The notes beneath the pieces were generated by a model. It had not been told where the DNA came from. It did no database searches and was given only the letters and a program-made list of their open reading frames with translations. From Octopus vulgaris (taxonomy: Eukaryota), in contig OX597842.1 of the NCBI GenBank assembly GCA_951406725.2, forward strand, positions 19,716,001-19,780,000: a stretch of DNA of 64,000 nucleotides. The letters are read 5' to 3'. This document shows, piece after piece, positions 4,061-62,440 of this stretch. Made by a program: the position numbers and the translations under genes. Positions within the stretch are counted from its first letter, which is position 1, and every line of letters begins with the position of its first letter.

Positions 4061-4090
4061 GCGAACATTCTTAAGCTTCTAGAACATACC

Positions 4091-7819: not shown

Positions 7820-8088
7820 AATGTCACTTGCTCTACTAATCAACCCTCGTCCACGCTATTTATAATTGACAAGTAGGCTCAGCCGAGCACCTTGCTGACG
7901 TTTCGCGCCAATCAATTTCATTGGTGGAATTTGACAGCAGTCTAATCACGTGACATAAACCCGCTCCTTTTTCGCTCGGCAGTTTCTGACTGCTGGAGCC
8001 TCCTGACTGCTATTTAAAGCCAAAAGCCGCCCTCGTAATTAGTCGCCAACTCTCTTCTTTGTTGAGAACTACTGTCGAACTTTGAAAT
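7820..8088. promoter_or_regulatory. Divergent H2B/H2A promoter region
   Basis: TATAAATA on minus strand (~7857-7864), CCAAT (~7908), ATTGG (~7920), TATTTAAA (~8011). Confidence 0.75.
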
Positions 8089-8466
8089 ATGTCTGGACGT
8101 GGTAAAGGAGGAAAAGTAAAGGGAAAGAGCAAGACCCGTTCGTCCCGTGCTGGACTTCAGTTCCCTGTCGGTCGTATCCACCGTCTTCTCCGTAAGGGAA
8201 ATTATGCCCAACGTGTCGGTGCCGGAGCCCCAGTCTACTTGGCCGCTGTGATGGAATATTTGGCTGCTGAGGTGTTGGAATTGGCAGGAAATGCTGCCAG
8301 AGATAACAAGAAATCGAGAATCATTCCCCGTCACTTGCAGTTGGCCATCCGTAACGACGAAGAATTGAACAAACTTTTGTCCGGAGTGACCATCGCCCAG
8401 GGTGGTGTTCTTCCCAACATTCAGGCTGTTCTTCTGCCCAAGAAAACCCAGAAGGCTTCCAAGTAA
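8089..8466 (+). CDS. H2A: Histone H2A, canonical (copy 1)
   Basis: 125-aa [13 protein letters not shown]...[12 protein letters not shown]...[11 protein letters not shown]; no SQEY tail. Confidence 0.99.
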
Positions 8467-10904: not shown

Positions 10905-11537
10905 AACAAGGAGGGAAAAAGATGTGTGTAGTGGCTAATGATCTATCATGGGGACGGCCATATATATATACATACATACATACTTTTATTAAAGCTGCAA
11001 ATTTATCACAAAACTGTTAATCTGAGTGTCAGGTTTGCATTCAAGAGACAGGTGTGATGGAAACATTTCATTCCAACTGTCCAACAGACAAGAACATGAA
11101 ACTCTGAGAAACAGTTTTGTAATAATTGGACAAACATTAATAGAATTTTTTATTCATTCAGAAATTATCTTAAATGGAATATATATATGAATATTATGAA
11201 AGAACAGCTTTTATTAAAAATATCAGAATTGATAAGGATATATAAAAATATAGTGTTAGTAAGTTGTTATAACATGCTGTTATATCTTCTTTATCCTGTG
11301 GATATATTTATTGTTATATAAGATATTCCTTTCAACAAATGACTTTTGATATTGATACAGTCACTCTTCTCTATGATGATAAAGATATCTGTAGTTAATT
11401 GTCTTTTTTCAGAGAAGGATATACCACAGAATCAGTTAGATGGTTTCTCTTCCATATCAATGTGTGTCTGTGTTTATCTAAGAGATTTATTTGAGAGAAC
11501 CATTCACCACAGATATCACAATGACATGGTTTCTCTC

Positions 11538-12224
11538 CTAATGAATGAGTCTGTGAGTGGTCAAGTGATCTATTTCAGAGAATGATTCACCACAGGTGTC
11601 ACAATGATGTGACTTCACCCCTGAATGAATACCTTTGTGTCTACTTAAATGTCCCTTTTGAGTGAATGATTTACTGCAGATATCACAGTGGTAAGGTTTA
11701 TCACCTGTATGGATAAATCTGTGAGTGGATAAGTCACCACTTTGAGAGAATGATTTATCACAGATATCACATTGATATGGCTTTTCACCTGTATGAGTAC
11801 GTTTATGTACAATTACACCACTTTTGTGAGTGAATGATTTACCACAGATATCACACTGAAATGGTTTCTCTCCTGTATGGATAACCTTGTGAGCAGCTAA
11901 GTTACCATCTCGAGAGAATGATTTACCACAGATATCACACTGAAATGGTTTCTCTCCTGTATGAATACGTTTATGTACAGTTACAGCACTTCTTCGAGCA
12001 AATGTTTTACCGCAGATATCACACTGATATGGTTTCTCCCCTGTGTGAGTAAGTCTGTGTGTATCCAAGTTAAATTTCATGGAGAATGATTTACCACAGA
12101 TATCACAGTGATATGGTTTCTCTCCTGTATGAGTAAGTTTGTGAGTAGCTATGTAACTCTTTAGAGAGAATGATTTACCACAGATATCACAGTCGTATAC
12201 AGATTTTCCTCTTTCTTTTGGCAT
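11538..12224 (-). CDS. C2H2 zinc-finger protein, 8 fingers with TGEKP linkers
   Basis: ATG at 12224 (MPKERGKSVYDCDICGKSF...), 228 aa; splice-acceptor-like tttctctcttatttcag immediately upstream of 12636. Confidence 0.85.
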   Translation of the reverse strand: MPKERGKSVYDCDICGKSFSLKSYIATHKLTHTGEKPYHCDICGKSFSMKFNLDTHRLTHTGEKPYQCDICGKTFARRSAVTVHKRIHTGEKPFQCDICGKSFSRDGNLAAHKVIHTGEKPFQCDICGKSFTHKSGVIVHKRTHTGEKPYQCDICDKSFSQSGDLSTHRFIHTGDKPYHCDICSKSFTQKGHLSRHKGIHSGVKSHHCDTCGESFSEIDHLTTHRLIH

Positions 12225-14285
12225 CTCTGCAGCTAAAACTAACAAAACTCCAAGATTCTCACACAATTCCTCTTTCTGTAATTTTTTTCTTCAACAAAAT
12301 GGTCTGGAAATTTCATTTCTTCTTGTTTCTATATTTTATTCCTAACAAATGTTACAACTGCCATATTTTTATCAAATATAAGCTTTGCTGATATCTTAAG
12401 ATGTTGCAAATGTCTTTGTAAATTTATCCAAGTTTATTCAGAATCCAAATTTAGGTTTTACCCATTTCAGAGTGAATCCAAGAAATTTCACCAATAATGT
12501 CACTCAGAAGAAATATTTTACTGAAATTCACAGTTAATTTACATAAACAGGGTTCTTATATCCAGTTCTGTGTAACATCGTCTTCAAAATATGATAAATA
12601 TTGATGACGCTTCTGCAGTAAATTTCCTCTGATATTCTGAAATAAGAGAGAAACAACAGTTTAACACAGAGTGTAGCTTTGGTTATGACAAAGGCTTGGT
12701 GTTCATTTATATACGACATTTACTGCTACAATGATAAATCTCATTTAAGAAACAGATTGGGTTTATTTACATTTCTGAAGAGAAAAAGGGATCTTTTCGG
12801 TTTGACCGGCAGTTTTTTCTAGTGGTGTCATATGAAATTGTCACCCATAATTATGACCCTAGTATCAATCTATTGCATTTCAATCTGTTTTAGGGTTAGG
12901 AGTGGGGGAAGGGTAATTTTCTTTTTTTTTCCACAAATGTAAATAAACCCAATCTATTTCTTAAACGAGGGACATATTCATACTGCCTTTAGGCAGTACA
13001 AAAACAACAAAAAAGTGGAAGGTGCAGTTATGACAAAAGAAAAGCAGGACAAAAACGATGCATGCAAATGGGTTGGCTGGAGGTAAATCTAGATGGAAAA
13101 GCATGATAAATTTATGAGAACCCGCTGGGACATTAATATATATATAATTATAATAAAGGGTTATTTGCAACAAGTTGCTTAAACCACATACCGAAAATAT
13201 TAGAAATAGCAGCCAAATAGGCTACTATTACTATTACTACAAAAATAAGTCTCCACAAACAACAGTATTTGCAACCCAAACAACAGTATTTGCAACCCGT
13301 ATATGGTAAAAGGAATGAAGACAACGAAATCACACAGTCTACTTTATATATATATATATACACATGAGCAAAATACCCCCTCCTCCCGGCCGTCCAATGG
13401 AATGTGCTGAGTTGTCAAACATTTAAACCAAATTTTCTCAAGATAACTTGTCCGACCGCTCCATAGGCCTCCCCTTTGAGAAACACTGATTTAACCTAAA
13501 TTAGGGACACCAGCAAAAGAAGAAATAAAGATAGACTTTTTTTCTATTCCAAAGAAAAACGATTTTATTCACAAAAATATGCAACCGAAGAGTTTAAAGT
13601 ACCAGTAATTATAAGGCTGTTGACTGGGAGAACACAAACATGGTTTAAACAGTAAGCTTGGCAGGAAAGAAACGTGCCTTTAAGCAGGACAAAAACAACA
13701 AAAAATGGAAGGTGCAGTTATGTACAGGTTGACGGAAGAAAAGCAGGACAAAAACGGCTTTATTGATCGCATTCTCACCTGGAATATATTATTGTAATTT
13801 TTTCTCACCTGGAAACGATTTTTGTAATTTTTTCAAAGACTAATACACGCCCTGATACAGTCGGTATCTACAAATCAAATTTAAGTGCAATCGGATGGAG
13901 GATGCCTGAAATCCAAGAAGACACACAGACAGAACGGATTTTATATAAGAGATTATGAAAAACAGCTTTTATTAAAAATATCAGAATGGTAGATATTGAT
14001 GAGTATAAATAAAAATATAGTGTTTTGTTATATCTTCTTTATCATCTGGATATATTTATTGTTATATAAGATATTCCTTTCAACAAATGACTTTTGATAT
14101 TGATACAGTCACTCTTCTCTATGATGAGAAAGATATCTGTAGTTAATTGTCTTTTTTCAGAGAAGGATATACCACAGAATCAGTTAGATGGTTTCTCTTC
14201 TATATCAATGTGTGTCTGTGTTTATCTAAGAGATTTATTTGAGAGAACCATTCACCACAGATATCACAATGACATGGTTTCTCTC

Positions 14286-16488
14286 CTAATGAATGAGTCT
14301 GTGAGTGGTCAAGTGATCTATTTCAGAGAATGATTCACCACAGATATCACAATGATAAGGCTTTTCACCTGTATGAGTAGGTTTGTGATTAGTTAATTTA
14401 GCTTTTACAGAGAATGATTCACCACAGGTGTCACAGAATGAACACCTGTCTACTTAAATGTCCCTTTTGAATGTGATTTCTGCAGATATCACAGTGATAT
14501 GGCTTTTCACCTGTAAGTACGTTTGTGAATAATTTAGCTTTTACAGAGAATTTCACCACAGTGTCTGATGTGATTTCTTCCTGAATGAACACCTTTGTCC
14601 TTAAATGTCCCTTTTGAATGAATGATTTACTGCAGATATCACAGTGATATGGCTTTTCACCTGTATGAGTACGTTTGTGATTAGTTAATTTAGCTTTTAC
14701 AGAGAATGATTCACCACAGGTGTCACAATGATGTGACTTCACCCCTGAATGAATACCTTTGTGTCTACTTAATTGTCCCTTTTGAATGAATGATTTACTG
14801 CAGATATCACAGTGATATGGTTTCTCACCTGTATGAAGACAACCTTTAGAGTGAATGATTTCCCACAGATATCACAGTGGTAAGGTTTCTCACCTGTATG
14901 GATAAACCTGTGAGTGGATAAGTCACCACTTTGAGAGAATGATTTATCACAGATATCACATTGATATGGTTTCTCACCTGTATGAGTACGTTTGTGTACA
15001 GTTACAGCACTTCTGTGAGTGAATGATTTACCACAGATATCACAGGAATATGGCTTTTCTCCTGTATGAGTAAATTTGTGAGTAGCTAAGTCACTATTTC
15101 GAGAGAAGGATTTACCACAGATATCACACTGGTAAGGTTTCTCCCCTGTATGAGTAAGTCTGTGCTTACTTAAATTACATTGCAAGGAGAATGATTTACC
15201 ACAGATATCACACTGATGGGGTTTCTCGCCAGTGTGAGTATGTTTGTGTTTAGCTAAGTCACCATTTCGAGAGAATGATTTACCACAGATATCACACTGG
15301 TAAGGTTTGTCACCTGTATGAGTAAGTTTGTGCGTAACTAAGTAACCACATCGAGAGAATGATTTACTACAGATATCACAGTGATATGGTTTTTCTCCTG
15401 TATGAATACGTTTATGTATAGTTACAGTACTTCTTTGAGTGAATGATTTACCACAGATATCACACTGATAAGGTTTCTCCCCTGTATGAATAACTTTGTG
15501 TGTCACTAAGTTAACTCTCACAGAGAATGATTTACCACAGATATCACACTGATAAGGTTTCTCACCTGTATGAATAAGTTTGTGTGTAGTTAAGTTACCT
15601 TTCAAAGAAAATAATTTACCACAGATATCACACTGATAAGGTTTCTTGCCTGTATGAGTATGTCTGTGTTTAGCTAAGGCACCATTTCGAGAGAATGATT
15701 TACCGCAGATATCACACTGATATGGTTTCTCCCCAGTGTGAGTAAGTTTGTGTGTATCCAAGTTAAATTTCATGGAGAATGATTTACCACAGATATCACA
15801 GTGATATGGTTTCTCTCCTGTATGAATACGTCTGTGACATGTTAAACCACTACAATTAGAAAATGATTTACCACAGATATCACAATGATATGGTTTATCG
15901 CCTGTATGAATACGTTTATGTACAGTTACAGCACTTCTTCGAGCGAATGATTTATCACAAATATCACACTGATAAGGTTTCTCACCTGTATGAGTAAGTT
16001 TGTGTTTAGCTAAGTTAACTTCATGGAGAATGATTTACCACAGATATCACAATGATATGGTTTCTCTCCTGTGTGAACTGTCTAGTCATTTGGAGAATGA
16101 TTTACCACAGATATCACAGTGATATGGTTTCTCACCTGTATGAATATGTTTATGTACAGTTACAGCACTTCTGCGAATTAATGATTTACTGCAGATATCA
16201 CAATGATATGGTTTCTCTCGTGTATGAGTAAGTTTGTGTTTAGTTATGTGACAGTTTTGAGAGAATGATTTACCACAGATATCATACTGATATAGTTTTT
16301 GCTCTGTGTGAATATTTCTGTTAATAGTTAGATTAAGTTTATTTTTAATATGATTTACCACAGATATCACAATGATGTGGCTTCTCTCCTGTATGAGTAA
16401 ATTTGTGAGTAGCTAAGTTAACTTTCACAGAGAATGATTTACCACAGATATCACAGTCATATACAGATTTTCCTCTTTCTTTTGGCAT
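14286..16488 (-). pseudogene. Disrupted C2H2 zinc-finger paralog (roughly 25 finger units)
   Basis: Same start and end as 11538-12224; stop/frameshifts near 16345, 16086 and 16015, and many small deletions in 14430-14850. Confidence 0.75.
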
Positions 16489-17011
16489 CTCTGCAGCTAA
16501 AACTAACAAAACTCCAAGATTCTCACACAATTCCTCTTTCTGTAATTTTTTTCTTCAACAAAATGGTCTGGAAATGTCCTTTCTTCTTGTTTCTATATTT
16601 TATTCCTAACAAATGTTACAACTGCCATATTTTTATCAAATATAAGCTTTGCTGATATCTTCAGATGTTGCAAATGTCTTTGTAAATTTATCCAAGTTTA
16701 TTCAGAATCCAAATTTAGGTTTTACCCATTTCAGAGTGAATCCAAGAAATGTCACCAATAATGTCACTCATAGGAAATATTTTACTGAAATTCACAGTTA
16801 ATTTACATAAACAGGGTTCTTATATCCAGTTCTGTGTGACATCATCTTCAAAATATGATAAACATTGATGACGCTTCTGCAGTAAAATTCCTCTGATACC
16901 AATGTCCTCTGATATTCTGAAATAAGAGAGAAACAACAGTTTAAGACAGAGTGTAGCTTTGGTTATGACAAAGGCTTGGGGTTCATTTATATACAACATT
17001 TATTGCCACTG

Positions 17012-30230: not shown

Positions 30231-31428
30231 TGCGATACCAGTAATTAGTAATTTTTATGAAACATAGCGTGTCCGAGAACTTTTTGATACCATCTCGTAT
30301 TTTTCTTGCAAATTCTGTAAAGAGTCTTTATTTTTTTTAATAAATAAATATTTTGATTTTGTTTGCTTATTTTTCTGTTGTTTTTATCTTATATAACATG
30401 TCTTTACATGATACACGTATAATACAATACCACATTAAAATACAAATCCTAAACCAAAAGAAACACAAACAGGAGGTGCAGCAAGTACCCTTATAGGGAT
30501 CACCGAACGCATTCTGTAAGGCAAGGCGCCAACAATGGTAAGAACTTCACTGTGGCAAATGTCACAGGTGGAAGAAATGGGTCACACTTCATTTCCTATG
30601 CTTAACGATTTTGTTCTCGTTGGCTACGGAAGCAGTGACCCTTTGATTATAATTGAAGATATTTATGCTAAAGCAATGGGTATACATATGCAAATGTACC
30701 CCACCGACTTTGTTTCTTCATAACTTCTGGAAAAATGAGTATTTTTAAATGAAAATTTTCAGAGATACCCTTAAGAAAGTGTAGATTGCAATTATATTGG
30801 AATAGCACATGTTGGTGGGACACCACACACACACATACACATCACATTCTTTTGCAAGAAATTTGTTTTTATAGAAAATTTCAATTAAAAAATATGAATC
30901 GTTTCTCTTTGTATTCACTTTTTGAAATTCTAAGATTCAGTCAAAATTTTCAAATTTGGAATATTCATGTAATTTTCCATGCTGAATCTGCTACCGCTCA
31001 CTTTTTCTGGACATAATTTTTTAAAAAGTGGACCTTTTCTGTTTGTGTTTTTCCCTTCAGCTCCTTCGGTTTCAAATTTATTGATTTCAAGTTTAGTGTA
31101 TTGATGTAGTTTTGTCTGTTAATTATATAAATGAAATTAGTTGTTGTCCTAAGTTGATAAATACACAGTTAATAGCTTTTAAGATTTTTAAACTCCCAGT
31201 AAAAGACGGAGCAGAGTTTTGGAAAAAATATTGCTAAAATATGGATATAATTTATTTAAAAAAACCAACTATTCCAATGCAATCAGTGAATGTCTTATTC
31301 TGATAAACAGAATTATTTCTTCTTTCCAGACCTCAGTTGAACCGTCCAACCCATGCTAGCATGGAAAGCAGACAATGATGATGATGATGATGAAAAGAAC
31401 ACAAATTGTAGCGTTCTTATACTAATGT

Positions 31429-31562
31429 TTATTTCTTAAAATATTTGTAGCCGAACAAAGCGAGTCCGACAAGGAGTCCAGCAAGGAAGAGTGAGCCAAA
31501 AATGATTCCGACAATCTCGAGTGTACTGTAGGTTTTTGGTTTAGGAGGTTCAGGTTTCGGAT
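31429..31562 (-). CDS. Predicted Ig-like membrane protein, coding exon 4 (stalk, TM, tail, stop)
   Basis: ttgtcaattgcag|AT...; (N)PKPEPPKPKTYSTLEIVGIIFGSLFLAGLLVGLALFGYKYFKK*; AATAAA overlaps the stop. Confidence 0.85.
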
Positions 31563-32129
31563 CTGCAATTGACAAACAATAAAATATATACCTTTTGTTT
31601 TTAATAAAAAATAGTAATATCTCCCAAGTTTGACCATTTTCATACTAAACTATTAAAAAATACTTTTGTTTCTGTTATACAAATTCCATTTCAAAGTGAT
31701 CTAAAGGAAAAGTCCCCATCAAAATTTCCAGTAACACTATGTTGCACACATAAGCTTGGTTATATAAAGCCTTGTGAGTGGATTTGGTAGACGGAAACTG
31801 AAAGAAGCCCGTCGTATATATGATTATATATATGTGTGTTTGTGTGTCTGTTTGTCCTCCCAGTATCGCTTGATAACCGATGCTGGTGTGTCTACGTCCA
31901 CGTTACTTAGCGGTTCGGCAAAAGAGAACCGATAGAATAAGTACTAGGCTTACAAAGAATAAATCCTGGGGTTGATTTGCTTGACTTAAGGCGGTGCTCC
32001 AGCATGGCCACAGTCAAATGACTGAAACAAGTAAAAAGAGAAAGTGAAAGAGAATATAACCCCCCCCACACACACACACACCTTGGTATTGACCCCCTCA
32101 TCCTTTGCCCTTGTGGCAAATAAAAGAAA

Positions 32130-32670
32130 CCCTTATTATATACAACTATCAGCTGAGTCCATTGTGAAGATGGCCCCTCTACTTTCCCTCAACCAGGAAG
32201 GGCAACCAGTTTTTATCTGCTCGGGCCCCATGGCAAAGGGGATCATACAGTGGACATGTCTGAAAGGGCTGAAGACCAGCAACTGCCATTTTGTCAAAAC
32301 CCTAATAAACTTTTTCAGGTTTCACTTGAAGAGGAAAATCAGGGTGGAGAGGTAAGTGCTGGCTACCAAGCAGTTTGTTGAAAGGTGGGTGAGAGGGGTG
32401 AGCATTACCTGAGTGAATGGGCCTTCTCTTAGAGCGTACCTGTATATTGGAGAGGAAAGACTGGGAGAGGGCATCAACCCTGGTGGCCAGGGAGACCTTG
32501 GATTTTGTGGGCTTTCTTTATGTGTGGCCCTTCAAAGTCCCCCTTCTATCAGGGGTTTTACTTTGAATTTCTTTTATTCTTTGTATGACTATTTACATGC
32601 TAAAACCCACACTGGACCCTCCCGAATGTTTTCCTTTGTGTTAGCCCTCTGTGGTTAATAAAGAAATTAT
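32130..32670 (+). mobile_element. L1/Tx1-like LINE 3' fragment
   Basis: IQLSAESIVKM...FFRFHLKRKIRVER and an AATAAAGAAAT end; related piece at 48122-48262(-) with DETVQHAFVHC. Confidence 0.6.
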
Positions 32671-32687
32671 TATAAATCATTTCCTAC

Positions 32688-32936
32688 TCTTTATCTTCAA
32701 ATTAATGTCTGCAGCTTTAAGGTTGTCATCATCAAATCTCCAAGTCAAACATTTCTCAGTTACGTTTCTGATCCAAAGCGTGGAGGTATCTCCTAAATGA
32801 GTCACTTTATAGTCACGGCCATCAGCGCATGTCCTGTCACATTCATATTTATAATTCTGGCACTTCCAAACCACCGGTCGTTTCATATCAGGTATTGTTA
32901 TCGAAAGGGTGAGGTTTCTATTGAGCACAGCAGGTC
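32688..32936 (-). CDS. Predicted Ig-like membrane protein, coding exon 3 (Ig-like domain)
   Basis: ttcgttatttcag|GA...A|gtagga; 249 nt, phase 1-1; GPAVLNRNLTLSI...VVW...STLWIRNVT...W. Confidence 0.85.
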
Positions 32937-33199
32937 CTGAAATAACGAAATCAGTTAAGAAGTTTGCTTCCAAATCACATGGTCCTGTGTTCAGTCCCAC
33001 TACACAGCACCTCGGGAAAGTGTCTTCTACTACAGCATCAGCCTTGTGAGTGGATTTTCTAGATGGAAATTGAAAGAAGCCCATTGTATGTATATGTGTG
33101 TGTATATATATACATACACACTTGTGTGTTTCAAAGCCTTGTGAGTGGATTTGATAGATGGAAACTGAAAGAAGCCCATTGTTTATATATATGTATATA

Positions 33200-33590
33200 T
33201 ATATATATGTAAATAGAAAATTATTATTTCTAAGTCCCTGAATGAGAAACATTCAGTAACATTAATCGAGAGTAAAGATTACTTGCCAACATAATATGGC
33301 AGTCCTAGTTAGGGTGATTGTTACTGTTATCTAGCCCTAGGAAACACTGCCTCCAGCTGGGTATATGACACGCTATCTATGTTCTATGGGATGCTAAACT
33401 CCCTTGTTTGAAAATATAAGGATGCAGCTAGTGTGTCATATAGCCTGCTGGAGACGATGTTTCCTAGGGCTAAGGAACAGTAACAATCGTCCTAACCAGG
33501 ACTGCCACATTATGTTGGCAAATAATCTTTACCCTAGAGTACTGTTACTCAATGTCTTTTGTTCAGAGATTTAGAAATAATTTTCTATTT
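33200..33590. repeat. Inverted repeat (~170-bp arms) within an intron
   Basis: ttgccaacataat..ggcagtcc..ccctaggaaaca versus tgtttcctaggg..ggactgcc..attatgttggcaa. Confidence 0.8.
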
Positions 33591-33936
33591 GTTAGATCAG
33601 AGACTTTGTGTCACTTTGGAAAGTATATATTTTGGACAAGAGTTTAGTGGAGTCATCTCTAGCCGAGCAGTTATTCTGTGCTGATGAAGGGAAATAACCC
33701 AGAGACCATTGGTATGCAGATAGATGATGTTTCCTAAGACTAAATTTACAGTATCATTCGTCCTAACCAAGACTGCCACATTATGTTGGCAAATATATAT
33801 ATATATAAGTTCAGCAAAAATTTAGATTCAAATGAATATGGTACTTAATTTAGATGCACCAGAATTTTGTATGGTGTTATCCATAGAAATCCGTGGGGTG
33901 ATTATAATGAAAATAAGCAATAAGAATGACTCCGGT

Positions 33937-34027
33937 AATTTGGTACGATCGTTTCGTACTACATCATTTTATTAAATGTTGTAAGTATTACAACAGTTTT
34001 AAAATGCTGAACACTCATCAGCCAATT
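33937..34027 (-). ncRNA. Type I hammerhead ribozyme with intact core and extended stem II
   Basis: aattgg-CTGATGA-GTGTT...AGTAC-GAAAC-GATC-GTA-ccaaatt; predicted cleavage after GUA (33944/33943). Confidence 0.7.
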
Positions 34028-34439
34028 ATAGAGGTTTTCTGTTAATACAAAAATTTTCATATCACGTGGCAACATTATAGAGAAGGTAGATATATAGACA
34101 AAGATGTGGATTTTAATTTTAAGAACGTATGATGTAGTGGAACAACCAAATCTTAGTACCTCATATGTTCTTAAAATTTAAATCCACATCTTTGTCTATA
34201 TATCTACCTTCTCTATAATGTTGCCACTTGATTTGATAACTTTTTTATTAATGGAAAACCTCTATAATTGGCTGATGAGTACTCAGCATCTTATAGAGGG
34301 ATTAGGCTATTATCAGCTCCCGGAAAAGATTTTAACAGGATACTTTTAGAGATGATGAGGACAGCAGTAAAGAAGAAGCTGGATTTAGGAAGAACCGTTC
34401 ATGTGGAGATCAAACCGCCACTCTTTGTATCATTGTAGA

Positions 34440-34722
34440 GCAAAGCGCAGAGTGGAATGCACTCTATCTGCGACAATTTCATCTCAATCGAAGAAGAGGG
34501 GCCTTCTCCGTCCGGGTTGCGGATCCGTGGAATAAGCTGCCGGACGAGATAGTGAAGATGCTGACGACTGCTCGGTTCAAAGTCTCCCTTGACCACAAAT
34601 GGCCTGAACTCTTTGCATGAACACCACCCTGTACATAACTCCATGTCCCCCTACATGGCCTTGCTTTTTTGCTTTTTGAGCCCAAAAATTAACTTAACTT
34701 ACCTTAACTTAGCTTAACTTGG
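34440..34722 (+). mobile_element. CR1/L2-like LINE 3' end
   Basis: AFSVRVADPWNKLPDEIV...FKVSLD and an (AACTT)n tail. Confidence 0.8.
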
Positions 34723-34907
34723 ATATAGAAAGAGAGGTAGGCCTAAGAACTAGTGGCGTAGATCAACACAAAAGGAACTAGAGAAAGGGGGACATTCATG
34801 GCAGAGTATAAGTACAGAGGTGAAAAATTATGCAACATGGAATTCAATTATGAGTGGCCTATACTCCATGTTGGAGGGTCAAATGTAGGAAAGAAGAATA
34901 TATTTAC

Positions 34908-34946
34908 CACTTTGGGTGATATTATACTTTTGTGCCCTTGACAAAT
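34908..34946 (-). CDS. Predicted Ig-like membrane protein, coding exon 2 (39 nt)
   Basis: ttttcatcttttacag|AT...G|gtaaat; (Y)LSRAQKYNITQS(G), phase 1-1; direct joining of exons 1 and 3 would give TGA, so an intervening exon like this one is required. Confidence 0.75.
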
Positions 34947-35489
34947 CTGTAAAAGATGAAAACAAAATTTTTTGATTTTAAGATGAAATAATTCAAAACA
35001 ATGTGAATAAATGAACATTACATTTCACAGTAATTTGATTGCTAAAGGATTAAAGCAGCCATATCTGTTTTATGTTCTAAGTGGCTGGGTCCAGCCCCTC
35101 ACACCTACCCTACAATGTCAGTCTAAAAATAAACAATCACATCGTCAAAACTACAAGATAACGAATGATTAATTCAAAAACCAAGTCTAAATGAGCATTA
35201 CATTAAACGAAATAAATTGATTGCTAACGAGTTAAAGTAGCCATACCTGGCACAAAGATTCTACCTGTTTCGTGTTTAAACTGGTAATGGGTCAGCCTTT
35301 TACACCTGTCTTACAATGTCATTCTAAAAATGAACAGACAAGGACTGCTATGTAAAGAAGTGCTGATCTTTAACTGCGGAGGCAATCTGTGGAAGAGGTG
35401 GACCCTGGAAGGTGCAGGACAAAACTGTGGAACATGAGGGCTTTGGATGTTGAGGCTGACATGTATTGATAAGTGACTGCAACTACCAA

Positions 35490-35680
35490 AAAAAAACTCA
35501 TATTGCTCAGAAACTGCCAAAAGACATTGATGAAAACATTTGTTCTGAAGGAGTGTAAAATGTTTGGGTTCTCCCTAGAAAATATTGGAAACATAAATGA
35601 AATTCCCACGTATTTCGATAAACCAGGAAACACTACAGCAGACACAGAGGGAAACGAAGCTGTTAAAGTAAAAACATCTG
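35490..35680 (+). mobile_element. pogo-like transposase relic
   Basis: IAQKLP and IGNINEIPTYFDKPGNTT...G...VKVKT (NxDET-region homolog). Confidence 0.65.
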
Positions 35681-35689
35681 AGAATTTAT

Positions 35690-36790
35690 TAAATAATGAC
35701 GGGTTGTGGTTAAGAAAACGAAGATCATGGCAACAGCAGCCACAACAAACATCAGCATCAAGATCGATAATGAAGAGATCGAAGTGGTTGATGATTTCAT
35801 CTTCCTTGGCTCCAAAAGAAATCGAGATGGTGACTGCACTCCAGAAATAAGACGGCGGATGGATGGAAGCACTCCGTCGGTTACGACGACGATGGTTCCG
35901 GTTGATCTGATCGACGGAAAAGCCTGCTCGTGAAATTAACGTGTAAGTGGCTGAACACTCCACAGACACGTGTACCCTTAACGTAGTTCTTGGGGATATT
36001 CAGCGTGACACTGAGAGTGACAAGGCCGGCCCTTTGAAATACAGGTACAACAGAAACAGGAAGTAAGAGTGAGAGAAAGTTGTGGTGAAAGAGTACAGCA
36101 GGGATCACCACCATCCCTGCCAGAGCCTCGTGGAGCTTTAGGTGTTTTCGCTCAATAAACACTCACAACGCCCGGTCTGGGAATCGAAACCGCGATCCTA
36201 CAACCGCGAGTCCGCTGCCCTAACCACTGGACCATTGCGCCTCCACAAGACGGCGGATAGTACTAGGCAGAGAGGCAATGGTCAGCATGAGCAGGGTCTG
36301 GAAGAGTAGAGACATCAGACTCGCTACCAAATGCAGATTGGTGAATGCAATTGTCTTCCCAATAGCAACATATGGATGCGAGACCTGGACACTAAAGAAA
36401 GCTGACCATAAGAGAATTAATGCATTCGAGCTTTGGTGTTGGAGAAGACTTTTACGGATTCCATGGATAACGAGGCTCACCAATGGAGAAGTTCTCAAGC
36501 AGATCAGGCCGAAAATGTCGGTAGAAGCAAGGATCACCAAGCATAGATTGGCATATTTCGGTCATATTATGTGGAGAAAATCCCTGGAGAAGGACATCAT
36601 GCTCGGAATGGTCAGTGGCAAGAGAAGAAGAGGCCGACCAAGAACCCACTGGCTTGACACCATCAAGAGTGATACCAGAATGGACATAGCCAATCTGAAA
36701 GAAGCGGCCCAGGATAGAACTGACTGGAGGACACTGATCCATCGAGTGACCGAGAGTCGACTTCGACTGAGCGGATAGAGAGATAGTGGT
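35690..36790 (+). mobile_element. RTE (BovB-like) LINE 3' part interrupted by a SINE
   Basis: KTKIM..EEIEVVDDFIFLGS..EIRRR / YGCETWTLKK..AFELWCWRRLLRIPW; SINE 35861-36246 flanked by TSD aagacggcggat. Confidence 0.9.
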
Positions 36791-37046
36791 TTTGAAAGAT
36801 AGTGGGTGATTCTCATACACAGTACCAAGATTAGTGTTGTATGGGGTGGGTGATGGGTGTGAGGGCTCACTGTTAATTAACCAGGGTGGGATATAGGGAA
36901 TGTTTTGGGACCTGAGGTTCTGTAAATAAGTTGTTAATGAGGCAGATAATTCATAAAGTTAATCCAAACATGAAAGCACAAAAAAAAACACAACACGAGG
37001 ACATGGAACAAATATAGTATTATTGGACGCTCAGGAAAGAAGGAGG

Positions 37047-37081
37047 GTTTAACGTTTCGAGCGGAGCTCTTCGTCAGAAAC
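37047..37081 (-). ncRNA. Minimal type I hammerhead motif
   Basis: gttt-CTGACGA-A-GAGC-TCC-GCTC-GAAAC-GTT-aaac; palindromic stem III. Confidence 0.6.
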
Positions 37082-37349
37082 ATATGAGAAGGAAAGATCC
37101 AGAGAAGGGAAGACAGAGAATTTATAAGTGGGATTGTGGTGGAAAATCATGAATTTTCCAAAATTTTCTTCCATAAAATGCATCATTTCTAAAGCTGTGA
37201 TGAAAACAAAATTGGGAAAATCCCTACCAAAACAAAGAAAATCCTCCTTATGTGAGTGACCCATTCCAGACCCCTGTGCACCTGAGTAAGTTTGCCTTAA
37301 CAAAAATTAGTTATGGAAAGAAATTAAATAAAATATAAATAAAACTTAC

Positions 37350-37395
37350 AGACAAATGTTACAAACAATAAGCAGAACAAGATCCATTTAGCCAT
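37350..37395 (-). CDS. Predicted Ig-like membrane protein, coding exon 1 (signal peptide)
   Basis: ttattttttcag|ATC ATG...; MAKWILFCLLFVTFV + T|gtaagt (phase 1). Confidence 0.8.
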
Positions 37396-38779
37396 GATCT
37401 GAAAAAATAATTTTCAAAAGTAGCAAAATAACAAAGTTTATAGCCCAGGGTCCGAGGCTGGTCAGGTTAAGAAAAACAAATAGTCAAAATGTCATCAGTC
37501 ATTCTTTAATAGATTTATGGTCAAGCCTGTGGCATTGGAGATCTTATTCTTAACTATTTCGAATACTACAGAACGCTGTACAGTAGAGACAAGTGCAGTT
37601 TGAACTTGCACAAACACTTTTTGCTACAGCATTTTCACGTCAAAATAAACGTTTTCTGAAGAAAATTCTAAATCATTTGAAACTTCTAACTGTGAACATT
37701 CTTCTTACTCTTTACTCTTTTACTTGTTTCAGTCATTTGACTGCGGCCATGCTGGAGCACCACCTTTAGTCGAGCAAATCGAACCCGGGACTTATTCTTT
37801 GTAAGCCCAGTACTTATTCTATCGGTCTATTTCGCCGAACCGCTAGGTGACGGGGACGTAAACACACCAGCATCGGTTGTCAAGCAATGCTAGGGGGACA
37901 AACACAGACACACACATACATATATATATATACATAAATATGACAGGCTTCTTTCAGTTTCCATCTACCAAATCCACTCACAAGGCATTGGTCGGCCCGG
38001 GGCTATAGCAGAAGACACTTGCCCAAGATGCCACGCAGTGGGACTGAACCCGGAACCATGTGGTTGGTAAGCAAGCTACTTACCACACAGCCACTCCTGC
38101 GCCTTCTTGTATAGTTTTTCTGAAAATCCAACAGTTACAGATCATGTCAGGGTCCCTGAAACTCCATGGTATTTCCTCGCATTTACAAACTTTGTTTTTT
38201 TCTTGGACTGTTGAATGACAACCCTCGTTCTAGTTCAATGCACTCAAGCACCATAACTCATGTTGCATTCAAAAATCATGTGTCCCCAAAGTCCATCCCC
38301 TCCTCACCGTGGTGGGGACACTGGCAACGAGTAGTGTCGGAGCTATGCCGTCGAGAACTTTGGTTCCTGGTAGGGCCACCCAAGGCAGATTGGTCTGACA
38401 CCGAGTGGTATTAGGCCCACAACCCGGCAGACGGTGCTCTGGTGAAAATCCTCGGAGTGTCTGTTTCAGCAACTGGCGGCTCCTCGGTCTTTGGGTTGTC
38501 TCTCTCTCTCTCACATCTCCTAATGAGTTTCCAGTAAGTTACAGATATTGATAGAGTCTTGAATTTACATTTTTAATGCTTAAAATAAGGAATTAGTTTT
38601 CACATTTTGTTTGTTCTTTAATCTATGTCTACATGTAATTCTGTGAAAGTCTGTGTGATGTGCAAGACACAACAGCTAAATCTCCCTCATATATATATCT
38701 TGTATTTTTATGACTATACAATCCAATATTTACAACAGAATCTCTTCTATTTGGACAAACCTTATAGTTGTGGCTTGAT

Positions 38780-40520
38780 GCAATGGGAAGTTTCAAAAAC
38801 CAACTGGGAAATACAAACAACGAAAAGAACTTAGTTTCTGAAAGAAAAAAATAAAAGATATTATTTTTAGAATTTTACTGAAAATGTACTGAATTTTTTA
38901 AAATTTAAAAAGTAAAAAAGGTTATGAGGGGTTATATGGGGTACTTAAACGAGAATTCCACCAAAAATCAAATTTTCAAACCAATTTTTTTTAATAGCAT
39001 AAATGCTTTGATGTGGATAAAAATATTGAAAAACATGAATACATGTTAGAGTGAGGAAGAAACAAGAAAGGTGGTTGTGGGATGTGTTAGAAACAACAGG
39101 CAGATCTCCCTTAAATCACACACCTTTCTTTACTCATAACTTTCTGACAAATGGATATTAATGGATATATCGGAATTTGATGTGAAAAAGTTTTCCGAGG
39201 GTGGGGTGAAAAGTTTTGGAAAATTCACATCAGTTGGCTTTTATTTCCTCATAACTTTTGGAAAAATGGATATTTCTTTAGTGGAATTTTCTACAAATAT
39301 CATTCGGATTGTGAAGGTGATGATTGAAAAACCATACATGTTAGAACCAACTGGGAAATACAAGCAAGAAAAGGAAATTAGTTTCTCTACATAAGCTGAA
39401 ATATAAAATTAAAAAACTATATTTTTGAATATTTTACTGAAAATGTACTGAATTTTTTTTTAAATTCCAAAAAGTTAGAAAAGGTTATGAGGGGTTATAT
39501 GGGGTTCTTAAACGAGAATTCCACAAAAAATCAAATTTTCAAACCAATTTTTTTTAATAGCATAAATGTTTTTATGGGGATGGCACATAAAAAGCATCAT
39601 CTGATTGTGATCGTTTGCCAGCCTCGTCTGGCACCTGTGCCGGTGACACGTAAAAAGCACCCACTACACTCACAGAGTGGTTGGCATTAGGAAGGGCATC
39701 CAGCCATAGAAACATTGCCAGATCAGACTGGGTCTGGTGCAGCCTTCTGGCTTCCCAGACCCCAGTTGAACCGTCCAACCCATGCTAGCATGGAAAGCGA
39801 ACGCTAAACGATGATGATGATGATGAATACATGTTAGAACCAACTGGGAAATACAAACAAGAAAAGGGACTTAGTTTCTCTACATAAGCTGAAATATAAA
39901 ATTAAAAAACTATATTTTTGAATATTTCACTTGAAATGTACTGAATTTTTTTTTAAATTCCAAAAAGTTAGAAAAGGCTATGAGGGGTCATATGGGGTTC
40001 TTAAACCAGAATTCCACCAAAAATCAAATTTTCAAACCAATTTGTTTTAATAGCATAAATGTTTTTAAGGGGATAAAAATATTGAAATACAAGCAAGAAA
40101 AGGGACTTAGTTTCTCTACATAAGCTGAAATACAGAATTAAAAAACTATATTTTTGAATATTTCACTTGAAATGTACTGAATTTATTTTTAAATTCCAAA
40201 AAGCTAAAAAAGGTTATGAGGGGTCATATGGGGTACTTAAACCAGAATTCCACCAAAAATCAAATTTTCAAACCAATTTGTTTTAATAGCATAAATGCTT
40301 TTATGGGGATAAAAATATTGAAATACAAGCAAGAAAAGGGACTTAGTTTCTCTACATAAGCTGAAATACAAAATTAAAAAACTATATTTTTGAATATTTC
40401 ACTGGAAATGTACTGAATTTTTTTTTAAATTCCAAAAAGTTAGAAAAGGTTATGAGGGGTCATATGGGGTTCTTAAACGAGAATTCCACAAAAAATCAAA
40501 TTTTAAAACCAATTTGTTTT
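38780..40520 (+). repeat. AT-rich tandem repeat (236-bp unit; longer ~545-bp variant)
   Basis: GAAATACAA..AAGAAAAGGGACTTAG at 39848, 40084 and 40320; related block at 43260-43830. Confidence 0.85.
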
Positions 40521-40914
40521 TAATGGTAGAAATTGATCAGGCATGCAATATTATGATGTGTCGATCGTCAGTAGTTCTGACGATAAAAATTTGTTGTTAT
40601 AATTGCATAATGCAGGATGTAAAAGAGGAAAAATGCATGAAGTTTTAAGGAGATATTTATTTCCCGTTAGAGAGAAAGGCATGTGTAGAGCATGAATGTG
40701 ACAGAGATAGCATTTGTGTGTGTATGAATCAAGTGTGCAGATGCATGCGCAAGGCTGTGAAGAAAGGTGCATGCGTGTGTGTATGCAACAATACAAACAT
40801 TTTCAAAGTGAACAAAAAAAAATGTACATTCAAAATATGAATAATAATAATAAGGAACATTCAAAAAGATATGCAAATGAATTTAGCTGCTTTAGTGAAA
40901 CGAATCGTCACATA

Positions 40915-41505
40915 ATTTGTGCAACGTGGAATGTGCTTCGGGGAATATGTGCAACACAGAATGTGCTTTGTGGAATGTGCTTCGTGGAATATGTACTTCA
41001 CGGAATGTGCTGGGTGGAATATGTGTAACGCGGAATGTGTGCAACGTGGAATATGTGCATCGTAGGATGCGCTTCATGGAAGATGTGCATCGCGGAATGT
41101 GTGCAACACAGAATGTGCTTTGTGGAATGTGCTTCGTGGAATGTGTGCATCGCGGAATATGTGCAACACAGAATGTGCTTTGTGGAATGTGCTTCGTGGA
41201 ATATGTGTAACGCGGAATGTGTGCAACACAGAATGTGCTTTGTGGAATGTGCTTCGTGGAATGTGTGCATCGCGGAATATGTGCAACACAGAATGTGCTT
41301 TGTGGAATGTGCTTCGTGGAATATGTGTAACGCGGAATGTGTGCAACGCGGAATATGTGCATCGTAGGATGCGCTTCATGGAATATGTGCAACGTGGAAT
41401 ATATGTATTGTGGAATATGTGCATCAGGGAATATGTTCATCGCAGAATGTGCTTCGTGGAATATGTGCTTCGTGGAATGTGTGCATCGTGGAATATGTGT
41501 AACTC
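40915..41505. repeat. GTGGAAT(A/G)TGTGC minisatellite with 60/120-bp higher-order period
   Basis: Lines 41101-41340 repeat with a 120-bp period. Confidence 0.92.
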
Positions 41506-44500
41506 GTAAACAAATGAAAGTGTGCAGTGCAAACAGAACAATAATAAAATAAGCAAAAATAACAAACTTAGCTGAAAATAGTGTCCTTTGTCTACAGCTG
41601 AAAGTGAATAGATGTGCATGCAAATAAAAAGAGTTGCTGAAAGTCTATGTGAGAGACTTACGTCCATGCAAAAGTTCACAAACCATGCAGGGTTTGTACA
41701 TCAGGATGAGACGAAAAGCGTGTGTGTGCTGAAAAGGTTGCATGTGCGGGCTTCCATATTTTCTTCCAGTTAGTTTCTTGGCATGTAAGCGAATACCTTG
41801 TGCGTCGGCTGTGTTGCATTGCAGCGAAGTGCATCGTAGATTGCATTGCAGAATAGTGCTTCCTGTAGCAGATCGATGGAGGGTGCATCATGGTGGTGTT
41901 GAAGGTTGTCATTCATTTTCCTTTGGGTTAGCGACTGTAGATGGTCCAGTTCTTTAATTCGAATCAGCATCTAGCATGAAAAGGTATTATTTCTCTTTAC
42001 ACGGGTTCACCAAATTGTTGGTAACATAGGTTCAGAAGGCAGCCAATCTTTTTCCACGGGCTCGCCAGTTTCATCATCATTATCATCATCATCATCGTTT
42101 AACGTCTGTTTTCCATGCTAGCATGGGTTGCACCAGGCTCCAGTCTTATCTGGCAATGTTTCTACAGCTGGATGCCCTTCCTAATGCCAACCACTCCATG
42201 AGTGTAGTGGGTGCTTTTTACGTGCCACCTGCACAGGTGCCAGGCGAGGCTGGCAACGGCCACGGTCGTATTGGTGTATTTTACGTGCCACCGGTACGGA
42301 AGGTAGTCGAGGCGGCGCTGGCTTGCAGTTAATCTTTGTGAAGGCTACAATGCTCTTCTTCGGGGCCACAAGTTGTAACGGGTATATTTTTATTAGACTA
42401 TTTGTAACGATAAAATTTTTAGTTGAAGTTGAGGGTCAGTAATTTAACGGTAGAAATTGATTAGTAAACAATATTACGATGTGTCGATTGTCAGCATTTG
42501 TGACGATGAAAATTTGTTGTTATAATTGCATACTGTAGGATGTCAAAGAGGAACAAGGCATGAAGTTTTAAGGAAATATTTATTTATTGTTACATTACCA
42601 ATAACTTGCATCGACGGGCAGGTTTTGAAAAATCCAAAAGCATGCGAAGTAAAGTTTGTGTTTGTATCCTCTTCATTGTTTAGTAGTAATTCCAGAGAGA
42701 GAGATAGAATGATGTTGTAAGAGAACAGAATTAGAGCTAGAGAGAGTTGTAAGGTGTGGGACGTTGTCTCGCAGTTGCTGACAGTAAACTTCATTTCTCC
42801 CTCTGAACAAGGTTCTAGCTGGTCAGCCAGACTTTGTTCTCACTGAGTTATCATTGTAGTGGCTAACTTGGTGAGTCATCACCGAAGTGACTGAACTTGT
42901 TGTGTTATCACAGGAGTTGACTTACTGATTTTTGCTTGGGGTGTTCTTGCTTTTATAACTAACCAGAAGGATAGATATATCATAGATTTAGTTGGTGGTT
43001 TTGTTATCTCTATTCTAGCTTTTGGTGAAGTAGAAAAGGTTAGAAAGGGTCAAGTAGTGAAGACATTATTTCGGCCTAGCTAAAGGCATCTGGAAAATGT
43101 AAAACTGCTGTCAGAGAAAAAAAACCATTGTTCCACCATGGGAAAAGTTTTGTTGCAGTGTTAATTTAAATTCGGCTATGGTGGATCGAATCCACTTCAT
43201 GCTAGCAAGATCCACTACAAACATTTACAGCAAAATCTCTTTTATTCCAACATACCTTGTACTTATGGCTTGATGCAATGGAAATTTTCAAGAATCAACT
43301 GGGAAATACAAGCAACAAAAGGAACTTAGTTTCTCTACATCAGCTGAAATATAAAATTGAAAAACTTTAGTTTTGAATATTTTACTGAAAATGTACTGAA
43401 TTTTTTTTTTTTATTCCAAAAAGTTAAAAAAGGTTATGAGGGGTTATATGGGGTTCTTAAACCAGAATTCTACCAAAAATCAAATTTTAAAACCAATTTG
43501 TTTTAACAGCATAAATGCTTTTATGGGGACAAAAATATTGAAAAACATGAATACATGTTAGAGTGAGGAAGAAACAAGAAAGGTGGTTGTGGGATGTGTT
43601 AGAAACAACAGGCAGATCTCCCTTAAACCACAAACCTTTCTTTACTCATAACTTTCTGACAAATGGATATTAATGGATATATTGGAATTTGTTGTGAAAA
43701 AATTTTCCGAGGGTGGGGTGAAAAGTTTTGGAAAATTCACATCAGTTGGCTTTATTTCCTCATAATTTTTGGAAAAATGGATATTTCTTTAGTGGAATTT
43801 TCTACAAATATTATTCGGATTGTGAAGGTGACGATTATATCAGAATTTAATATGTAAACAAAATTTGTGGGCTCACACACATACATAATTACATACACAT
43901 CGTGAATTGAAACTTGAAATTTTGATAGAAAAATGTTATCTGTCAGTATGTGTGTGTGTGTGTGTGTGTGTGCAAACCCATCTCTTTCTCTCTTGCTTGT
44001 TTCGGTCATTTGACTGTGGCCATGCTGGAGCACCGCCTTTAATCGAGCAAATCAACCCCAGTACTTATTCTATCGGTCTCTTATGCCGAACCGCTAGGTT
44101 TACTCTTTTTACTCTTTTACTTGTTTCAGTCATTTGACTGCGACCATGCTGGAGCACCGCCTTTAATCAAGCAAATCGACCCCATGACTTATTCTTTGTA
44201 AGCCCAGTACTTATTCTATCGGTCTCTTTTGCCGAACTGCTAAGTTACGGGGATGTAAACACACCAGCATCGGTTGTCAAGCAATGCTAGGGGGACAAAC
44301 ACAGACACACAAACACACACATATATACGACAGGCTTCTTTCAGTTTCCGTCTACCAAATCCACTCACAAGGCATTGGTCGGCCCGAGGCTATAGTAGCA
44401 GACACTTGCCCAAGATGCCATGCAGTGGGACTGAACCCGGAACCATGTGGTTAGTAAGCAAGCTACTTACCACACAGCCACTCCTGTGCCCATCAATTTT

Positions 44501-58656: not shown

Positions 58657-59622
<966 letters not shown>

Positions 59623-62440
59623 GCGAACATTCCTAAGCTTATTCAAGAGCATACCGGCCCTTTTCAGGGCCACCCACTTTTTAATTTAAGTCAACTCTCC
59701 TAAATCGCGATGTGCTTCTGTGTTTATTGTTATTTTGCAACTACTGGTATTTAACGCGCCCCTTGGTGGGAAAACTTTGTTCACACCCTTTTGGGGAAAA
59801 AAATTATTTCACACCGATGTACGACCCTTTACGAAATATTTACTTTCGGTCCACACTTTTCGGGGGCGATCTTTCGGTATAACTATCGTAAGTGGCTTTG
59901 TTACATTTCTGAAGATAAACCCTTTACTCCCACCAACCTTGAATCCCCTATATATATAAATACACTTTGTTGAAATGTATCCGGTACTTCTTCCGAAGTT
60001 ACGCCTTTTCGGGAAAGCGTTAGGGGTAAGCTCTAGTCCGTGTGTATCATAAGGAAGGGTGGCTTGCCTTTGCAAATACTGATAGGGCACAGAGTGTCTA
60101 AAGCCAACTGGAGGTGTCCTCCTGGGGCTACAAACTACAGTAGCATCCACCCTTAGGGGTTAGCCATATTTAAATGGCAAATACACGTCACGGTTAGGGG
60201 ATCGGCTGCACGAAGTATTTGCCCCCAGACCATCTGCGTTTTCTTTATCGTTAAATCAGATATTTCGGGACACTTGCATCGCCCTAGTGCAGAATATTCT
60301 GTGCAAACACTTGGATGCGATTGCTGATTCACAGGGACTGGCAGATTTCTCTTTAGAAAGTCTAGTAACACTTAGGAGCATTATTGGTAGCCGTAAGTTT
60401 AGTACCCGGTCACCAATCTAATAGACAAGATGTACTTTGCTAACTATAATCGATTGTTCAGTGGAGAAAATCTGCAGCCTCTTAATGCGGGTGGAGTTTG
60501 TTTTTGGCTACGTATTTCGGTACTACTTAAGAAGGGCCCGGTGCGCGCGCACTCGCGTTAGCTAGTCATGAATAGTCGATCCTACGACGACTACCTAGCA
60601 AAGTAAAATAATTTTTTTTACACAAAGTAAATAAAAAACATACAAAATAAGGATCGACTAATTGCGAGTGCGCGCACCAGGACCACGCTTCTTAAGTAGT
60701 ACCCATATTTCCCTCCGATATTCATGGGATCGGACGGCTGTCTCTGCTAATATCGTTAATGAGCTTTGTTATTGCATAATCGTTCCATTGTGCTGAAGAC
60801 AATCGGAGATGTTAGGAAATTTCATAAAAGTGGGAAAAGTTGGCGGTTTTGCTACGTGCTTCTGTCAGAACTCCGGCCGCATTTGGAGACTGCAATACTT
60901 TAATCCGGGTGCAGGGTTGAATCTGTCTACACTTTTTACCGCTTTTTATCTTCATTGTTTACTTTTCCCTATTTAATTTTCATTGTAATTTCATTCCTTT
61001 ATAAATAACTCATCCGATTTCATATCAGTTATTTAAGCTAACGATTCCTCCGTGGTGGTTTGCAATTTAGAAATAGTTTATTCAAATAATAAAGAAATAT
61101 ATAGTATTTTATCAGATCTTCGGTGTTGGAGTTATTGTACTGATGACAAACAAACCCAGCTGCTAACTGCAGGCGTTACGCCTCGACAGGACAACGCCTT
61201 TAATGAAATTTCACATAAATACCTAATTAAATTCTCAGTCGGTTATTAGTTCAGTTTAAGTAAAACATTTCATTCCATGTGCATTATTCATTATTTTGTT
61301 TTTAAAAAGGAATTCACACCAAATCTACACAAATGACCACCACCGCGATCACATACACACGTGCGTGTGTATATGTGGCTATATGTCTGACTAATGTGTG
61401 TGTCTGTATTTATTGTATGTGTGTAAAGTAGTTATGCTTATATTATCCATTATAGTAATATTTGTCTGTTGAAATCCGTTTTAAGGCGGTCAATAGTTTA
61501 ATTAAAGATGTGTCTATACATGTGTAATGTATACACATGTATATATATATAATCATGCGAACTTACATAGACAATTACAAAGAATGTTATGAGTTCGAAT
61601 GAGACTTAAAAATTTAGTTGTAATATGACATAAACGAAAACTTGGCTTACTTTTGCCTTTACGAGAACTTCTTCTGGAGACACGGAAGAGGTACGTTGGC
61701 GCATTTAATACTACACACAGGTCTTCGTACACCAGTTAGCCCTGTTTACTTGCCTATTGATGGCTAAAATATGAAAATAAGGAAGGTATCAGATGGTTGT
61801 TAGTTACAAGCCCTTAACTTTTTCTGAGAGAGCAATTAACAACAATTAAGAATTTGCCTGTTTTCTGTTTTGTTTTAATTTATAGAATAAAATATTTAAA
61901 AATGAATGGACCCGCCCACTTTTTAAACATCTTCGACGCAAACCCCCTTTTTCGGTTACGGTGAATTCGAATCTGCAAAATAAATTGGCAAAAAAATAAC
62001 AATCAACATTTCTAAACTACCACCCGTTTCCTTCATTTTTTACAGAAATCTTTTAGGAACTAACTTATTCTAAATATGCGGAAAAATACGGACAAAAGTC
62101 TCCAAACTATCCTGTAATTACGGTTAAGGTTAGCGCTGGGGGACACCAGACAAAATTGAAGTTGGAGGGATTTCTTAAATTTCAAAAAAGTATCATTAAA
62201 AACTTGCAAACATGTTCGTTTATATATTCGCGTGAGTATACAAATACCTGTGCTTCGATGTACACAAATTGTTTCCACCCCCAATCCATTCTATGACTGT
62301 TGTCTCCTGCGCAAAGCCTGGAGAAATTAACCCCAAAAACATGGATCGCAAATCGGCAGAAAATCTGAATCAACTTTCATGAGAATGTGGGTGGCCCTGA
62401 AAAGGACCGTTATTCTTCGATGAAGAGAAACGAAGCAGGT

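Follow-up and report, generated by a model that had tools for sequence, protein, structure and literature searches.

The N domain of CEACAM proteins is a V-like immunoglobulin (Ig) domain without the canonical disulfide. In the CEA family, stop codons within transmembrane (TM) exons yield glycosylphosphatidylinositol (GPI) signals, other stops generate secreted members, and gene conversion occurs (PMC2832619, in the part covered); for CEACAMs, selection and conversion have been tied to bacterial adhesins, at the surfaces that bacteria bind (PMC8860441, likewise in part). In an invertebrate, Hydractinia, the Alr domains have both pin cysteines replaced by hydrophobic residues (sections covered of PMC9546547). 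Here, I describe a gene on the minus strand of a 64,000-nucleotide stretch of the Octopus vulgaris genome (contig OX597842.1, positions 19,716,001 to 19,780,000; hereafter the window), the first of a tandem array belonging to an apparently undescribed family of small Ig-type proteins. This family behaves like CEACAM/PSG genomically and recalls Hydractinia Alr in its cysteine-less core; on the tests run, it does not appear to belong to either.

The likeness to CEACAM/PSG concerns clustered, species-specifically expanded Ig genes, conversion, positive selection on a V-like domain, and putative GPI-type and secreted forms made by stop codons. Unlike CEACAM/PSG, the octopus V-like domains are tandemly repeated, each encoded over two exons, and have other, predicted disulfides; unlike CEACAM1/3 and many Alr proteins, the octopus array has no members with immunoreceptor tyrosine-based inhibitory or activation motifs (ITIM/ITAM). 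No sequence homology to CEACAM/PSG was detected in profile searches, and the CEACAM1 and CEACAM7 N domains match the octopus fold model at Z 9.4 and 9.3, scores that titin and antibody domains reach as well. With Hydractinia Alr the octopus genes share clustering in an invertebrate single-pass family, domains mostly missed by Pfam (Alr proteins have 1-3 Ig domains) and a V-type domain with hydrophobic residues at both pin-cysteine positions; they differ in keeping the core Trp, in lacking an Fn3-like spacer and an ITAM/ITIM tail, and in being a young array whose copies are highly similar. Both Argonauta proteins and other dispersed family members carry in addition a C-type Ig domain, whose cysteine pair looks canonical; they are V-plus-C, like the ectodomains of butyrophilin, CD200/CD200R and Neph1, which the model of one such member matches at E of about 3e-9 to 2e-8; at 12-17% identity this is shared architecture and not orthology, and the array genes lack the C domain. 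The Dpr/DIP and ZIG/RIG-5 proteins, wiring proteins of insects and nematodes with canonical disulfides and evolutionary stability, also comprise many small Ig paralogues and are among the tied fold matches, yet no homology signal beyond the fold links the octopus family to them.

The gene had been proposed, in a sequence-only reading of this DNA, as a hidden four-exon gene for a type I membrane protein with one atypical Ig-like domain. All four minus-strand exons, each checked on the sequence, have the AG/GT ends and coordinates proposed; each of the three junctions is in phase 1, and translation of the 468-nt frame yields the 155-residue product as read. On both strands, the window holds a single open 249-nt phase-1 stretch with matching splice context; since it is the sole such stretch, and since the exon layout recurs in 11 nearby genes, the gene model is not a product of chance. 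Its parts, together with one related element, are as follows.

38734..38837, minus strand: 5' untranslated exon with two donors (38761 or 38734), from contig joints; missed by the sequence-only reading; its 38837 boundary is taken from an AG acceptor and one contig joint

37350..37398, minus strand: exon 1, with 3 untranslated bases, the ATG at 37395 and the leader peptide (sequence and contigs)

34908..34946, minus strand: exon 2, 39 nt, encoding the leader end and Ig strand A (sequence and contigs)

32688..32936, minus strand: exon 3, 249 nt, phase 1-1, encoding Ig V/I-type strands A' to G; target of diversifying selection

31429..31562, minus strand: coding part of exon 4, with a Pro/Lys hinge, the TM helix, a tail of ~6 residues and the stop (sequence and contigs)

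30330..31428, minus strand: 3' untranslated region (UTR), with candidate poly(A) signals at 30341 and 30332 (contig cover; end inferred)

43225..43334, minus strand: ~84% diverged copy of the 5' untranslated exon (sequence; head-to-tail contig joint of the exon type), which may be a further upstream exon

The N-terminal hydrophobic leader and a hydrophobic span at about residues 128-150 agree with the type I topology, and the product has the three sequons (N24, N36, N86) and four non-canonical ectodomain cysteines (54, 61, 65, 91) described for it. A hinge of ~14 residues lies between the Ig domain and the helix, which bears two GxxxG motifs (G130, G140). In multi-domain paralogues, the equivalent of exon 2 encodes the interdomain linker plus strand A.

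Exon 3 has 95 matches in the genome, 79 of them at E<1e-5, none of these with a stop and 69 on the same chromosome contig. The family count appears near saturation for the search method, because a divergent member used as query gave 75 matches in the same places. From 87 candidate matches examined, 79 gave an exon call and 75 intact exons (246-252 nt) were kept, four being dropped (three degenerate, of which two are on C19 and one on C2, and a fourth that carries a stop). A tandem array of ~0.58 Mb (19.74-20.33 Mb) comprises at least 12 complete genes, and more distant family genes continue to 20.47 Mb. Each array gene consists of a leader, one to four pairs of a 39-nt and a 249-nt exon, a last exon and its own 3' UTR; the array is therefore no protocadherin- or Dscam-like locus, in which constant exons would be shared. 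The single Ig domain of the earlier reading thus holds for the gene and is incomplete for the family, whose paralogues carry 1-4. The array interval was mostly examined directly, and the genome-wide search found no domain exon in the remaining gaps. The genes are interleaved with histone clusters and zinc-finger fragments, a layout which suggests that copies arose from unequal crossing-over.

The array genes end in three ways. Five of the 12, the gene studied included, have the full helix and a short basic tail of fewer than 10 residues. In four, a shared GGA-to-TGA change places a stop inside the TM span, leaving after small residues and a spacer a tail-less hydrophobic stretch that looks GPI-signal-like. 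The last group, three genes of 4, 3 and 3 domains, has its stop in common at the second full codon of the last exon, although the downstream backgrounds differ. From these ends, the first set of truncated paralogues is predicted to be GPI-anchored and the second to be secreted. A second type of tail-less end, likewise GPI-like by eye, characterises four more distant genes; O. sinensis and O. bimaculoides proteins have it too.

These ends bear on whether the protein serves as an accessory or chaperone subunit of a membrane transporter or channel, the other role that had been considered for it. Basigin is the model for an Ig-type accessory role, and such subunits have conserved TM spans; the octopus gene resembles them in its single Ig domain, short tail and GxxxG motifs, but no other part diverges as much as its hinge/TM exon, which 7 of the 12 array genes have truncated or lost, and such a function is highly improbable.

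Selection was analysed on 26 exons (25 from the array and one at 22.36 Mb) over 82 codon sites. The rate of replacement substitutions (dN) exceeds that of silent ones (dS) in 300 of 325 non-independent pairs, with means of 0.156 vs 0.093, and the gene differs from its neighbour copy by 17 replacement and 0 silent changes. In codon models run with purpose-written GY94 code (not PAML), using a fixed tree, scaled branches and naive empirical Bayes, a single dN/dS ratio (omega) of 2.18 is preferred over omega=1 (likelihood-ratio test statistic, LRT, 21), and M2a over M1a (LRT 71), with 44% of sites at omega 4.3 and 22 of 82 sites above 0.95. Recombination between copies was detected (p=0.0005); trees built on each half of the exon give omega values of 1.9 and 2.8, and a tree-free count in which each distinct codon step is taken once gives 126 replacement and 24 silent steps (P=0.005 at a transition/transversion ratio, kappa, of 2.5). 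Median mismatch to paralogues is 11% in the domain exon and 17% in the hinge/TM exon, as against 1-6% in introns (one repeat-containing piece set aside) and 1.6-3.2% in the 3' UTR. The dN/dS and family-size check proposed with the gene model has therefore returned a large family with omega of about 2 (26 exons). As judged from strand alternation, the selected sites would fall in the A'B, BC, DE and EF regions and on the outward face of strand G, spread over the surface, while the C-C' hairpin and the core would be conserved. Two of the three sequon asparagines, N36 and N86, are among the selected sites.

Such an array could also consist of passengers of an unstable histone-gene repeat, under relaxed selection and with the stops as signs of decay. 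The alternation with histone clusters and zinc-finger fragments, the early last-exon stops in 7 of 12 array genes and the few degenerate exons that exist elsewhere all speak for drift of this kind. Nevertheless, omega lies above 1 and not near it, 27 of 82 residues are invariant in the 26 copies, all 75 exons extracted are intact, the stops come back at the same two positions against differing backgrounds, and the tail-less hydrophobic end also occurs in the O. bimaculoides proteins P0056 and P0060; I regard passenger drift as very improbable.

Reproductive proteins are typically under strong positive selection, recently expanded and present in both anchored and secreted forms, and the octopus family shows the same combination, the anchored and secreted forms being predicted. 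Its members might be seminal proteins, or proteins of the gamete surface, whose diversity stems from sexual selection or sperm-egg recognition. The PSGs of the CEA family provide a precedent, in the part of PMC2832619 covered. Presumed transcript contigs of the family are present in 8 of 8 runs from 5 study codes, either spliced or exon-covering, which is unlikely if all the runs were from gonad, a weak argument as the run labels are coded. On balance, a reproductive role seems rather unlikely.

A fold model was made for P0011, a copy 93% identical to the gene product, from a 72-row alignment. It is an all-beta two-sheet sandwich with a predicted local distance difference test score of 89.7, pointing to the Ig V/I-type fold that had been proposed. 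In structure comparison its best match has Z 11.1 at a root-mean-square deviation of 2.6 over 94 aligned residues, with V and I types tied, and Foldseek returned 142 matches at E<=0.001, Ig V or I throughout the matches listed. A viral origin was considered and shows no sign, the viral fold library having given generic Ig matches. Standard profiles mostly miss these octopus Ig domains: Pfam has no match for exon 3 alone, its I-set matches 12 of 72 members weakly (best E 1.4e-4), and its cut-off is passed only by the summed scores of the multi-domain P0002 and P0003. Against solved structures, the family profile finds myotilin alone, at E=1, and no CEACAM at E<=10.

The V-set hallmark list used for comparison is that of PMC9546547, in the sections covered. 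On its predicted fold the domain is an Ig superfamily member, but it departs from this list at several points. As the sequence-only reading had claimed, both canonical Cys positions are non-Cys: none of the 75 exons has a Cys in column 41 or column 96, on a mapping which relies on the pattern and a weak myotilin alignment and assumes an EF segment one residue shorter. By this mapping, the B-F disulfide (Cys23-Cys104) of the V-set is lost. The core Trp on strand C is retained as described (W52, 72/75 exons); at the strand E equivalent of Leu89 there is L82 in 56/75 and a hydrophobic residue in the remainder; the Tyr102-corner position is W94 in the gene, and Trp in 74/75. The Asp98 position is C91 in the gene, with Cys in 41/75 exons and Asp in 21/75. 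A C54-C91 disulfide is suggested because the two cysteines co-occur (both in 36 exons, neither in 32, one in 7), although Fisher's P for this is overstated, the sequences being related. C61 is invariant and its partner C65 is present in 69/75 exons, five of the six exceptions apparently reflecting a shifted alignment in a subfamily that has one residue inserted. Two non-canonical disulfides, C54-C91 and C61-C65, are accordingly predicted from the alignment.

The fold comparison also bears on a cell-to-cell identity code, in which paralogues or alleles would bind each other selectively, in tissue self-recognition or in neuronal wiring. Hydractinia Alr proteins and the Dpr/DIP proteins of insects are known for selective binding among alleles or paralogues; the tied structural matches include Dpr, DIP, RIG-5, Kirrel and nectin-like domains, and tail-less or short-tailed Ig proteins with many paralogues would suit adhesion codes. 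The pattern of conserved C-C' strands and variable other surfaces fits as well, and Alr domains likewise lack the canonical cysteines (PMC9546547, sections covered). Titin and antibody domains, however, tie with these structural matches, which give no functional signal; rapid birth-and-death and secreted copies would fit a wiring code poorly; and, a weak point, six family gene ids are absent from the three supplements covered of an octopus brain atlas. I consider an identity code unlikely, if well short of negligible.

The sequence-only reading had offered a recognition or adhesion protein and an accessory subunit as alternatives; the former is now favoured and the latter unlikely because there are dozens of paralogues, diversifying selection, 1-4 domains and three C-termini. 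My preferred account, tentative and a little short of evenly balanced, is that the gene encodes a variable cell-surface binding protein facing microbes, and that the paralogues predicted to be GPI-anchored or secreted are likely decoys. New copies would arise by unequal crossing-over in histone-containing repeat units, conversion would shuffle surface patches among them, and an arms race would be driven by microbes binding these proteins, as reported for primate CEACAMs. The gene's own copy might be an adhesive or ligand-presenting protein, or might signal through a partner; no signalling of its own is inferred, because the ~6-residue tail has no signalling motif.

Several points weigh against this account. 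The same evolutionary signature is also left by proteins of reproduction and of self-recognition. Site-model statistics can be raised artificially by recombination, and the tree-free count reaches only P=0.057 at kappa 1, with transitions unweighted, the estimate of kappa being ~2.6. Conversion that homogenises introns may exaggerate the contrast with exons; along the same line, the mean dS of 0.093 equals the divergence of the upstream intron flank (0.093) and exceeds that of the downstream flank (0.041). The GPI-type ends were judged by eye. Finally, an ITIM- or ITAM-like tail is found in 0 of 12 array genes, the longer tails of distant members having had no systematic screen.

A broader proposal is that octopods independently evolved a CEACAM/PSG-like germline repertoire, made up of dozens of atypical V-type Ig proteins, with positive selection, conversion in histone arrays and membrane, GPI and soluble forms switched by single stop codons, as their main variable microbe receptor/decoy system or else as a chemical self-identity code. 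I hold it to be a serious possibility, if on balance a doubtful one. Should the CEACAM parallel be true, a membrane/GPI/secreted receptor set would clearly have evolved convergently, by the same route via stop codons. In any case, a family this large with omega of about 2 is a direct candidate for octopus recognition of microbes, mates or self, and its ectodomain is small, suited to work as a soluble domain and easy to test.

The lineage restriction that had been anticipated holds at the level of sequence searches, which find named members in octopods only. Among 1.84 billion representatives, a protein search gave 30 matches: 25 named Octopus or Argonauta proteins, one unnamed full member and four short repeat matches. 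The named Octopus relatives belong to vulgaris, sinensis and bimaculoides, and all named relatives are labelled uncharacterized or hypothetical save one zinc-finger fusion model. Profile searches found Octopus proteins only (21 and 14 matches). The ESM Atlas ranking is topped by unnamed mollusc clusters (0.92-0.96), followed by V-set and other Ig clusters; the mollusc clusters may be the family itself or deeper relatives. In a quick, unrooted tree of 82 columns, used for broad grouping only, the array copies group with O. sinensis sequences and one O. bimaculoides domain is sister, and both Argonauta proteins group with the dispersed genes bearing the second, C-type domain. A V-plus-C ancestor with later expansion of the V module is likely, although the tree is unrooted.

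Transcript contigs, from runs presumed and not labelled to be RNA, join exons 1-2 (37350 to 34946, in 3 of 4 runs) and exons 2-3 (34907 to 32935, in 4 of 4), both with GT-AG ends. Two of the three predicted junctions are thereby seen as joints; for exon 3-4 there is no base-exact joint among the rows listed. There, contigs lose their match exactly at the 31562 acceptor and then continue, one paralogue contig bridges intron 3 inexactly, and the public models P0002 and P0011 use the junction. The 5' untranslated exon is joined to 37398 with GT-AG ends from donor 38734 in 3 of 4 runs and from 38761 in 2 of 4. Paralogues almost identical to the gene, rather than the gene itself, could be the source of the exon 1-3 joints; two contigs match the gene's distinctive last exon, with 3 differences in 329 bases and 0 in 120. 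A retrocopy origin of the spliced joints was ruled out, as 75 of 75 intact domain exons were extracted flanked by AG and GT. A segment of the 3' UTR (window 30856-30926, 71 bases) is missing from contigs of two runs and from most paralogues, and is not a GT-AG intron.

The gene is hidden in part: public annotations do hold family members, but these are uncharacterized or mis-fused. Mis-fused models are P0011, P0002, P0012 and P0030, and the partners fused to family models are histone H2B, a zinc-finger gene, an untranslated exon and several neighbouring genes; because of the mis-fusions at the locus, expression studies cannot currently count these genes. Three array genes are preceded upstream by a leader exon of a second type (C29:19972779, 19989684 and 20156348), and the O. 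sinensis isoforms P0006 and P0007 use either of the two leaders.

No paper was found for 11 family gene ids, subscription journals and some supplements lying outside the search, and a topic search found no description of the family at the level of listings and abstract starts. In the parts covered of the cephalopod genome papers PMC9068888 and PMC10700109, the word 'immunoglobulin' was not found. The three unidentified genes of PMC9815951 were ruled out as family members, being peptidase-like, neuropeptide-like and disordered/helical proteins. The part examined of the skin-mucus proteome table of PMC10138644 holds no family peptide motif, and the places where its id prefixes were examined (2 of 8 and 2 of 11) are all other genes.

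Around the gene, two histone quartets with identical proteins (H3/H4 and H2B/H2A pairs) flank it at window 3059-8466 and 58672-63465. The minus strand of window 11400-17000 contains C2H2 zinc-finger arrays in several frames, apparently frameshifted, and at three further array positions a histone cluster is followed by related fragments. Upstream of the gene, window 39000-40600 and 40700-41650 are tandem repeats, the first holding partial copies of the 5' untranslated exon. Further away, a two-domain gene at C29:16.42-16.53 Mb (L072-L077) has three 39-nt strand-A exons ahead of its first domain and four TM-type last exons nearby, one of them inverted; alternative splicing or orphan exons are possible sources of the extra exons. 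Strand-A segments are also doubled in P0049 and P0054. Finally, L113 (C2:214.76 Mb) and L114 (C19:23.98 Mb) hold degenerate fragments derived from the domain exon, in part arranged in tandem and in some cases with stops.

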